A stretch of DNA of 64,000 nucleotides from NCBI RefSeq assembly GCF_053078305.1, contig NZ_CP166879.1; one strand, given 5' to 3'. Positions 17,661 to 17,907 of this stretch are shown here, piece by piece. The notes beneath the pieces were generated by a model. That model saw only the letters and a program-made list of their open reading frames with translations, did no database searches and was not told the DNA's origin. Within the stretch, counting starts at the first letter, position 1. Each line of letters begins with the position of its first letter. The position numbers and the translations under genes are program-made.

Positions 17661-17907
17661 GATAGTCTTAATCAGGAAGACATAAATTGTGCTCCATATC
17701 ATAACTTTGTGGTTATTAGTGTCTTTTGTATCATGCACTATTGTTTATAGTATTCAGCACGTGAGAAAAAAGAGGCACCATCTTTTTATAGTATTTACAT
17801 TCATATTCACAAGTTTATTTTTTTCATGTAAGTCCCTACCCTGAAGGACCGGGTTTTACGGTGCGCCAAATAAGGTGTTGCCCCAGGTAGTGGATTGCTG
17901 TAACTGA

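Follow-up and report, generated by a model that had tools for sequence, protein, structure and literature searches.

A 51-codon hydrophobic open reading frame behind a probable terminator hairpin in Escherichia coli prophage cargo DNA is probably a chance frame

The question raised by this locus is whether a short, hydrophobic open reading frame (ORF) preceded by a Shine–Dalgarno (SD)-like motif, and located in the cargo DNA of a prophage, is a gene or is simply a stretch of spacer in which no stop codon happens to occur. The window, meaning the whole 64,000 nt stretch of contig NZ_CP166879.1 analysed here, is from Escherichia coli strain 48 and is 100 % identical to contig JPQG01000001. Strain 48 has been described as subAB2-3-positive and strain 453 (MPGR) as a reindeer STEC strain (PMC5323612); the latter matches the window stretch with 99.98 % identity. 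The ORF is located on the plus strand at 17689–17844 (51 codons; translation MLHIITLWLLVSFVSCTIVYSIQHVRKKRHHLFIVFTFIFTSLFFSCKSLP) and its anatomy is as originally predicted. Read directly off the sequence, it starts with GTG at 17689–17691, ends with TGA at 17842–17844 and is preceded by AGGAAG at 17674–17679, 9 nt ahead of the start codon, while its 5′ limit is set by an in-frame TAA two codons before the GTG. The predicted pair of hydrophobic segments separated by a basic loop is likewise borne out: the peptide has a GRAVY of 1.03, and RKKRHH is located between two TM-like windows, defined as windows of 15 residues with a mean Kyte–Doolittle hydropathy of at least 1.6. This architecture had been compared in the original prediction with that of small membrane proteins and type I toxins, with a chance ORF considered quite possible. 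It is the last of these readings that is favoured here. Length, hydrophobicity and SD motif are all inside chance expectation, no family is matched, and codon-level selection is not significant; the ORF is probably a non-functional chance frame on the T-rich strand of an AT-rich prophage spacer, and it appears not to be translated.

A decayed lambdoid prophage carries the ORF at its cargo end, beyond the tail-fibre genes, with a DUF5339 cargo gene, a tail-fibre assembly gene and spacer DNA as neighbours. The DUF5339 gene (17339–17617, plus strand) encodes 92 aa with an N-terminal signal peptide and matches Pfam PF17274 with an E-value of 3.3e-21. A hairpin with a perfect 14-bp stem and a 7-nt loop (17626–17660) starts 9 nt past the DUF5339 stop, and the ORF is located 3′ of both. 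Folded on the plus strand, the hairpin has a dG of −21.2 kcal/mol and a z of −4.4; folded on the minus strand it has a z of −3.3 and is followed by a U-rich tail. The canonical U-tract, UUUUAUUAUAUUAUUU, belongs to the minus strand, and the U-run of the plus strand is partly within the stem. The stretch 17626–17660 thus combines a stable stem loop and a U-run where a transcription unit ends, as expected of an intrinsic terminator, and the stem is unchanged across the lineages of related prophages apart from one G·U to A-U replacement. A simple scanner for terminators left out this hairpin.

In E. coli JNEC-KY176 and in one of the related loci (L020) the gene order is DinI, DUF5339, hairpin, a convergent DUF4376 tail-fibre-assembly gene, tail fibre, Hok/Gef and gpJ. 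In L020 no more than about 60 nt separate the DUF4376 stop (3374) from the position at the hairpin where homology to the window ends (3315). Because the U-run is on the minus-strand side and the convergent DUF4376 gene ends close by in relatives, the hairpin appears to be a bidirectional intrinsic terminator that separates DUF5339 from convergent transcription. It is the only element at the site that is clearly supported as functional. On the chance reading of the ORF, the working element here would be this hairpin, ending both DUF5339 transcription and convergent transcription, and in the simpler relatives the convergent transcription would come from the tail-fibre assembly gene that ends beside it.

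An extra spacer of about 1.15 kb (17665–18080 and 19525–20245), together with an IS4 copy, is present in the window between the hairpin and a DUF4376 remnant (20281–21075), and the ORF makes up the initial 156 nt of this extra spacer. A non-coding unit is repeated within it, with copy 1 at 17909–17999 and copy 2 at 19633–19721; the unit is approximately 75 % similar to a stretch just 3′ of rep in E. coli plasmids of 3–4 kb. The IS4 copy (18081–19524, minus strand; 97 % identity to IS4) is inserted in the spacer and carries a frameshifted transposase gene, with the Pfam domains DDE_Tnp_1 and Nterm_IS4 on two separate ORFs. Three related loci (L012, L014 and L015) show the state without the IS4 interruption. 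About 130 nt of a CxxCxxCC gene, intact in the lineage termed B below, are left in the window spacer, and a sulfatase-family fragment is also present in the surrounding spacer. In a spacer so rich in remnants, the ORF could itself be what is left of a longer, degraded membrane-protein gene of the cargo region. This is very improbable, however: the in-frame TAA closes the frame only two codons before the GTG, the ORF has identical boundaries in three lineages of relatives, and no similar protein is found among 1.84 billion representatives apart from one mis-called sequence (below). Given the upstream in-frame stop, and with no longer relative found, the remnant reading was rejected.

The length, hydrophobicity and SD motif of the ORF are no better than chance. 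Of dinucleotide-preserving shuffles of the 475 nt intergenic region, 62 % contain an ORF of 51 codons or more, as do 16–18 % of shuffles limited to its AT-rich 261–283 nt. Of composition-matched, random, stop-free ORFs of 51 codons, 22 % reach a GRAVY of 1.03 and 19 % have two TM-like segments. The strand carrying the ORF is 41 % T and 27 % A. Because T fills half of the second codon positions of the ORF (50 %), the segments are rich in Leu, Ile, Phe and Val and look helix-like, and the ‘basic loop’ RKKR likewise results from a purine-rich run, GAGAAAAAAGAGG. On the chance reading, any stop-free frame in a spacer this rich in T would give a hydrophobic peptide by composition alone. The duplex of the SD motif with the anti-SD has an energy of −4.3 kcal/mol, as compared with −9.3 kcal/mol for DUF5339; −4.3 kcal/mol is the median of long ORFs, and the energy is equal or better in 17 % of the 313 ORFs of 40–80 codons in the window. 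Seven window ORFs of this size class have a GRAVY of at least 1 and at least two TM-like segments, and 3 of the 7 also have an SD-like motif. One such look-alike, antisense to a pdu gene (534–731), is 65 aa long with a GRAVY of 1.06, two TM-like segments and an SD-like motif. If the ORF under study is a chance frame it serves as a calibration case, in that a two-helix look, an SD-like motif and an open frame can arise without function; the scope of this calibration is a T-rich prophage spacer compared across relatives of less than 10 % divergence. Another of the three look-alikes with an SD-like motif, at 23183–23416, is probably a real immunity gene.

The original description of the ORF as unannotated holds. 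No gene is called over it in identical NCBI contigs, and none of seven start and allele variants of the peptide is present in a collection of 15 billion proteins, which indicates that it has never been called by gene callers. Genuine small proteins are frequently orphans and are frequently overlooked by gene callers. The ORF is single-copy, with no paralogue within the window. A word-indexed search of 5.8 billion protein clusters found no relatives of the peptide, and a full HMMER scan against 1.84 billion representatives yielded one protein (P0001; 156 aa, E-value 2.6e-12). This protein was rejected as a homologue: its Trp residues are on TGA codons, the ORF at that place stops at the identical TGA under table 11, and its two source contigs do not yield it under table 11. 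P0001 is therefore an artefact of the wrong genetic code, and it illustrates that a database ‘homologue’ can be of this kind. It nevertheless pointed the way to divergent DNA copies of the segment.

Searches for families and for further copies were similarly sparse. Pfam gave no families for the ORF at E-values up to 0.01, and NCBIfam and PADLOC gave none each at E-values up to 1. A single marginal match to a PHROG family of unknown function (E-value 0.0035) was obtained with the window allele only, was not reproduced by an allelic variant and is treated as a composition effect. No match to the peptide was found by tblastn among plasmids and phages, Rfam returned nothing for the segment at E-values up to 1, and BLASTn of the segment against phages and against plasmids returned nothing useful. 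Exact 22–27-mers searched against genome contigs, metagenome contigs and viral contigs likewise returned nothing useful, apart from one truncated viral contig (L014). Among 5,426 complete E. coli genomes searched in distant mode, none had the segment and one had the hairpin alone. A DUF5339-seeded scan of species-representative genomes gave nothing useful, and no comparable downstream ORF was found beside the distant DUF5339 genes on plasmids.

Relatives were instead obtained by exact look-up of DUF5339 protein variants, which gave 40 loci; these variants are indexed in 73 to 1,685 blocks. The copies of the segment fall into three lineages of E. coli prophages: lineage A comprises the window, L003, L005 and the L026 type; lineage B comprises L012, L013 and L015–L024 except L020; and lineage C comprises L033–L042 except L037, together with the viral contig L014. 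Pairwise divergence of the ORF across these lineages is 3–8 %. The GTG, the AGGAAG, RKKR and codons 1–45 are unbroken in 15 of 15 intact haplotypes, which represent all three lineages. Codon 30 has five states (H, S, C, N or Y), and the substitutions within the hydrophobic stretches all remain hydrophobic or small (T/I, V/M, V/A, S/T/I). Indels in the ORF are confined to the 3′ T-tract, whereas the flanks carry many. This tract, a T7 homopolymer in the window (17818–17824, plus strand; codons 44–46), differs in length among relatives: lineage A has the 51-codon form of the ORF, L012 and L039 have 3 nt more and 52 codons, and most of lineages B and C have 4 nt more and 48 codons, with the frameshifted tail …FFFFM. 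Slippage between T7 and T8 appears to be recurrent, because the 52- and 48-codon forms are both found within B and both within C.

Expected conservation of the frame in homologous regions is therefore upheld in part. Codons 1–45 stay open in every intact haplotype, but the last 3–6 codons are frameshifted in most copies, four loci are disrupted and the segment is missing elsewhere. IS66 is inserted at 17806, breaking codon 40, in L025, L029 and L032, and L027 is truncated or rearranged past about codon 20. Homology ends at 17626 in L002 and L008–L010, at 17653 in L020 and at 17664 in L001 and L037; the latter two carry IS1414 in the hairpin loop. Tail slippage, the variable codon 30 and these disruptions and losses are what a dispensable or unconstrained frame would show. 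Persistence of the frame in the remaining relatives is accounted for by a divergence of only 3–8 %.

The same pattern could also be left by a real, lineage-restricted orphan inner-membrane protein of 48–52 residues carried as prophage cargo, a reading that is unlikely although it has several points on its side. Such a protein would be a helical hairpin whose RKKR(H/N)(H/N) loop, by the positive-inside rule, faces the cytoplasm and whose two termini are periplasmic. Its translation would start at the GTG, by way of AGGAAG, on read-through transcripts of DUF5339, and its last few residues would be unimportant. The open codons 1–45 with start and SD motif kept, the conservative hydrophobic substitutions, the invariant RKKR and the restriction of indels to the 3′ T-tract are all consistent with it, and the lack of a clean U-tract on the plus-strand side of the hairpin makes read-through plausible. 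However, every sequence feature of the ORF is inside chance expectation, no homologue is known from the searches above and no gene caller has reported it, it has no promoter or terminator of its own, and the second hydrophobic stretch is only about 15–17 residues long. The frameshifted tails, the IS66 and deletion alleles and the absence of the segment from related prophages are further points against it.

Substitution patterns do not single out the frame. Between lineages A and B, DUF5339, a ‘moron’ or prophage cargo gene, has 13 synonymous and 5 nonsynonymous substitutions (dN/dS 0.08) and is under strong purifying selection. The ORF has 5 synonymous and 8 nonsynonymous substitutions in the same comparison (dN/dS 0.41), and the five other frames of the ORF DNA give dN/dS values of 0.40–0.75. 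Over all haplotypes the ORF has accumulated 17 events, of which 6 are synonymous, 11 nonsynonymous and none a stop. When these 17 events are re-placed at random, the probability of no stop is 0.50 and that of at least 6 synonymous events is 0.25, with a joint P of 0.14; when the 13 A–B substitutions are re-placed at random, the frame stays open in 61 %. As 50–61 % of random placements leave the frame open and the joint P is 0.14, the open frame and the codon pattern provide no evidence of coding. The ORF frame does show more synonymous events than any of the other five (6 vs 1–5), yet frame-specific selection is not detected (P 0.14).

Conservation of the region as a whole is a different matter. 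With a three-taxon tree, correction for AT/GC content and an expectation taken from flanking non-coding DNA, codons 1–45 of the ORF show 13 substitutions against 24.8 expected (P 0.007), and the segment from the hairpin to codon 45 (17618–17823) shows 20 against 37.6 expected (P 0.001). The DUF5339 coding sequence shows 25 substitutions against 52.8 expected, a ratio like that of the ORF segment, and conservation on a par with a neighbouring coding sequence is a point in favour of an orphan protein. If the flank rate is scaled by hand arithmetic to Nei–Gojobori sites, the 5 synonymous substitutions compare with approximately 5.3 expected and the 8 nonsynonymous substitutions with approximately 19.5 expected. 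Such a depletion at nonsynonymous sites would be expected if a protein were under moderate purifying selection. The region-level conservation (P 0.007) is not specific to one frame, however, and it is only suggestive, because several segments were examined, the three comparisons are non-independent and mosaic recombination among prophages can mimic it. The suggested, about two-fold conservation of the approximately 200 nt segment is the sole feature of the locus that deserves an inexpensive follow-up.

Since the conservation is not tied to one frame, it could reflect a non-coding function of the approximately 200 nt segment, either as an antisense RNA of approximately 80 nt or, for the convergent transcription units, as a 3′-UTR or regulatory element. 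This is quite unlikely. A promoter-like site on the minus strand, AAGACA-16-TATGAT (17725→17698), matches 9 of 12 consensus positions, and its two hexamers are kept in lineages A, B and C. Together with the hairpin, whose canonical terminator orientation of stem loop and U-run is on the minus strand, it could, speculatively, yield an RNA of approximately 80 nt antisense to the SD motif and start codon of the ORF. The geometry would resemble that of SymR/SymE, in which the antisense RNA spans the SD and start of the toxin, and if the ORF were a toxin the two would form a type I-like pair. However, the promoter is weak, its −35 hexamer lacks the TT of TTG, and its frequency is as in shuffles: 9/12 matches number 5 in 1.2 kb against 3.0 ± 1.5 in shuffled DNA, with no enrichment. 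The −35 hexamer is further degraded in the L026 haplotype, and the convergent tail-fibre operon of the simpler relatives already accounts for the U-tract on the minus strand. Rfam is empty, as stated above, and RNAalifold run on both strands shows no compensatory base-pair changes beyond the hairpin.

On the plus strand, only one promoter-like site is available to the ORF, TTGATA-18-TAAATT (17659–17688). In lineage C its −35 becomes TTGACA and its −10 loses the final T. The −10 hexamer ends directly before the GTG, so that with the usual spacing a transcript from this site would begin past the start codon; consequently, the ORF could be expressed only via read-through of the hairpin. No terminator is found 3′ of the ORF, where z is −0.4 to −0.8 and the folds differ among the three lineages.

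Judged by these features, the type I toxin suggested originally finds no support, with zero toxin-family matches and no promoter covering the SD motif and start codon. The ORF does resemble the type I toxins (Hok/Gef, Ldr, TisB, Ibs, ShoB, ZorO, DinQ) in having fewer than 60 codons, in being hydrophobic and in its prophage, intergenic location, and an antisense RNA over its SD motif and start is geometrically possible. A small hydrophobic product of fewer than 60 aa is, however, also encoded by 19–22 % of composition-matched random ORFs. Pfam, NCBIfam and PADLOC are empty with regard to Hok/Gef, Ldr, TisB, Ibs, ShoB, Fst and SymE, and instead of a toxin-mRNA promoter ahead of the SD motif a strong hairpin directly precedes the ORF. 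Type I toxins mostly have one TM helix, whereas the ORF has two predicted hydrophobic segments, no long structured 5′ UTR and no supported antitoxin RNA. A genuine Hok/Gef gene is present nearby in related prophages.

Class II holins and pinholins such as S21 have two TM domains, about 65–75 residues and a charged C-terminal tail. The ORF shares with them a phage origin and two hydrophobic segments. A holin was rejected for a product of 48–52 residues with no charged C-terminal tail (it ends …FFSCKSLP or …FFFFM), no lysis cassette and no holin match in Pfam or PHROGs. Small membrane proteins of E. coli such as AcrZ, MgtS and CydX were reportedly validated through models of ribosome-binding sites and conservation, in work of the type of Hemm et al. 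in 2008. Validated proteins of this class mostly have a single TM helix, cross-species conservation and a clear synonymous bias. The ORF is like them in size, hydrophobicity, SD-like site, retention of the frame and missing annotation, but unlike them it is limited to three close lineages of E. coli prophages and its codon-level signal is not significant. The ORF is accordingly not a member of any established family of type I toxins, holins or small proteins. It is closest to chance ORFs in AT-rich, horizontally acquired intergenic DNA: its features are inside the distributions of shuffles, composition-matched random ORFs and demonstrably spurious ORFs of the window, and it has neither homologues nor gene calls. 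It differs from them in that its segment is about two-fold more conserved than the flanks and in that every intact relative keeps the frame open.

A doubtful further reading is a young orphan gene restricted to E. coli prophages, encoding a two-helix inner-membrane cargo peptide of 48–52 residues. It might be kept under control by an approximately 80 nt antisense RNA borrowing the putative bidirectional terminator, which would constitute a new type I toxin–antitoxin-like pair. Were the orphan-gene reading true, selection on the gene would show its first trace in the two-fold excess conservation and the depletion at nonsynonymous sites. The cargo of Shiga-toxin-associated E. coli prophages would then include one more small membrane protein of orphan type, or one more type I-like module, which would be of modest and local interest. 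The neighbouring DUF5339 protein is found in identical form in at least three chromosomal contexts.

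At its left end (1-12146) the window carries a pdu (propanediol utilisation) operon that shares only ~76 % identity with its counterparts in 643 complete E. coli genomes, whereas 42686-47677 shows 98.8 % identity to an accessory region present in 825 genomes. This disparity in identity indicates that the window is a mosaic island carrying a divergent pdu cluster.

Three ORFs of the CDI region, all on the minus strand (23183-23416, 23413-24090 and 23960-24685), comprise an orphan CdiA C-terminal toxin, which starts with a PT-VENN motif, and a 77-aa strongly hydrophobic ORF. The latter (23183-23416; GRAVY 1.46) has three TM-like segments, an SD-like motif and no match in Pfam, and shares 4 nt with the end of the neighbouring ORF (23413-24090), which continues the toxin. 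Because it lies where a cdiI immunity gene would be expected, the 77-aa ORF probably encodes a genuine small membrane immunity protein. Additionally, a 64-aa ORF at 21142-21336 (+) gives a SymE_toxin-like match of 27.7 bits, slightly below the Pfam cutoff of 29. This ORF is flanked by a prophage remnant on one side and by orphan CDI modules on the other.

An identical 92-aa DUF5339 protein is encoded in at least three chromosomal contexts (window 16868-17664; loci L001-L042, which carry relatives of the gene or of the adjoining DNA). In one context the gene adjoins a YadA-like adhesin and CDI modules, in another an autotransporter, and in a third it occupies prophage sites at aspS-yecD and rcsD. 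Breakpoints of homology concentrate at the terminator hairpin 3′ of the gene (17626, 17653 and 17664), and in two loci IS1414 sits in the hairpin loop. The hairpin looks like a hotspot for recombination or insertion.

The IS4 copy at 18081-19524 (-) is 97 % identical to E. coli IS4. Its transposase frame is broken into two parts, 19040-19420 and 18093-19019, and the copy is probably inactive. The target site is uninterrupted in three relatives, two of lineage B (L012 and L015) and the lineage C viral contig L014. On either side of the IS4 copy lies one copy of a non-coding unit (17909-17999 and 19633-19721; 72–75 % identity), for which Rfam returned no match. The unit is ~75 % similar to a stretch directly 3′ of the rep gene in 3–4 kb E. 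coli plasmids, its counterpart in plasmid NZ_CP046544.1 lying at 1039-1151.

P0001, the only protein matched by the peptide of the 51-codon ORF (17689-17844) in an HMMER scan of 1.84 billion representatives, was rejected as a homologue. This 156-aa entry of the public protein collections stems from a gene call in which TGA was read as Trp; the source sequences are short Logan contigs carrying E. coli DNA (L012, 1278-1748; L013, 62-532). Read with table 11, its frame ends after 52 codons; it is thus a database artefact imitating a homologue. Within the ORF, codon 30 (17776-17778) is the triplet immediately 3′ of the purine run GAGAAAAAAGAGG. Five states of this codon are found among close relatives (CAC, AGC, TGC, AAC and TAC); either mutation has a local hotspot at this triplet, or the site is diversifying.
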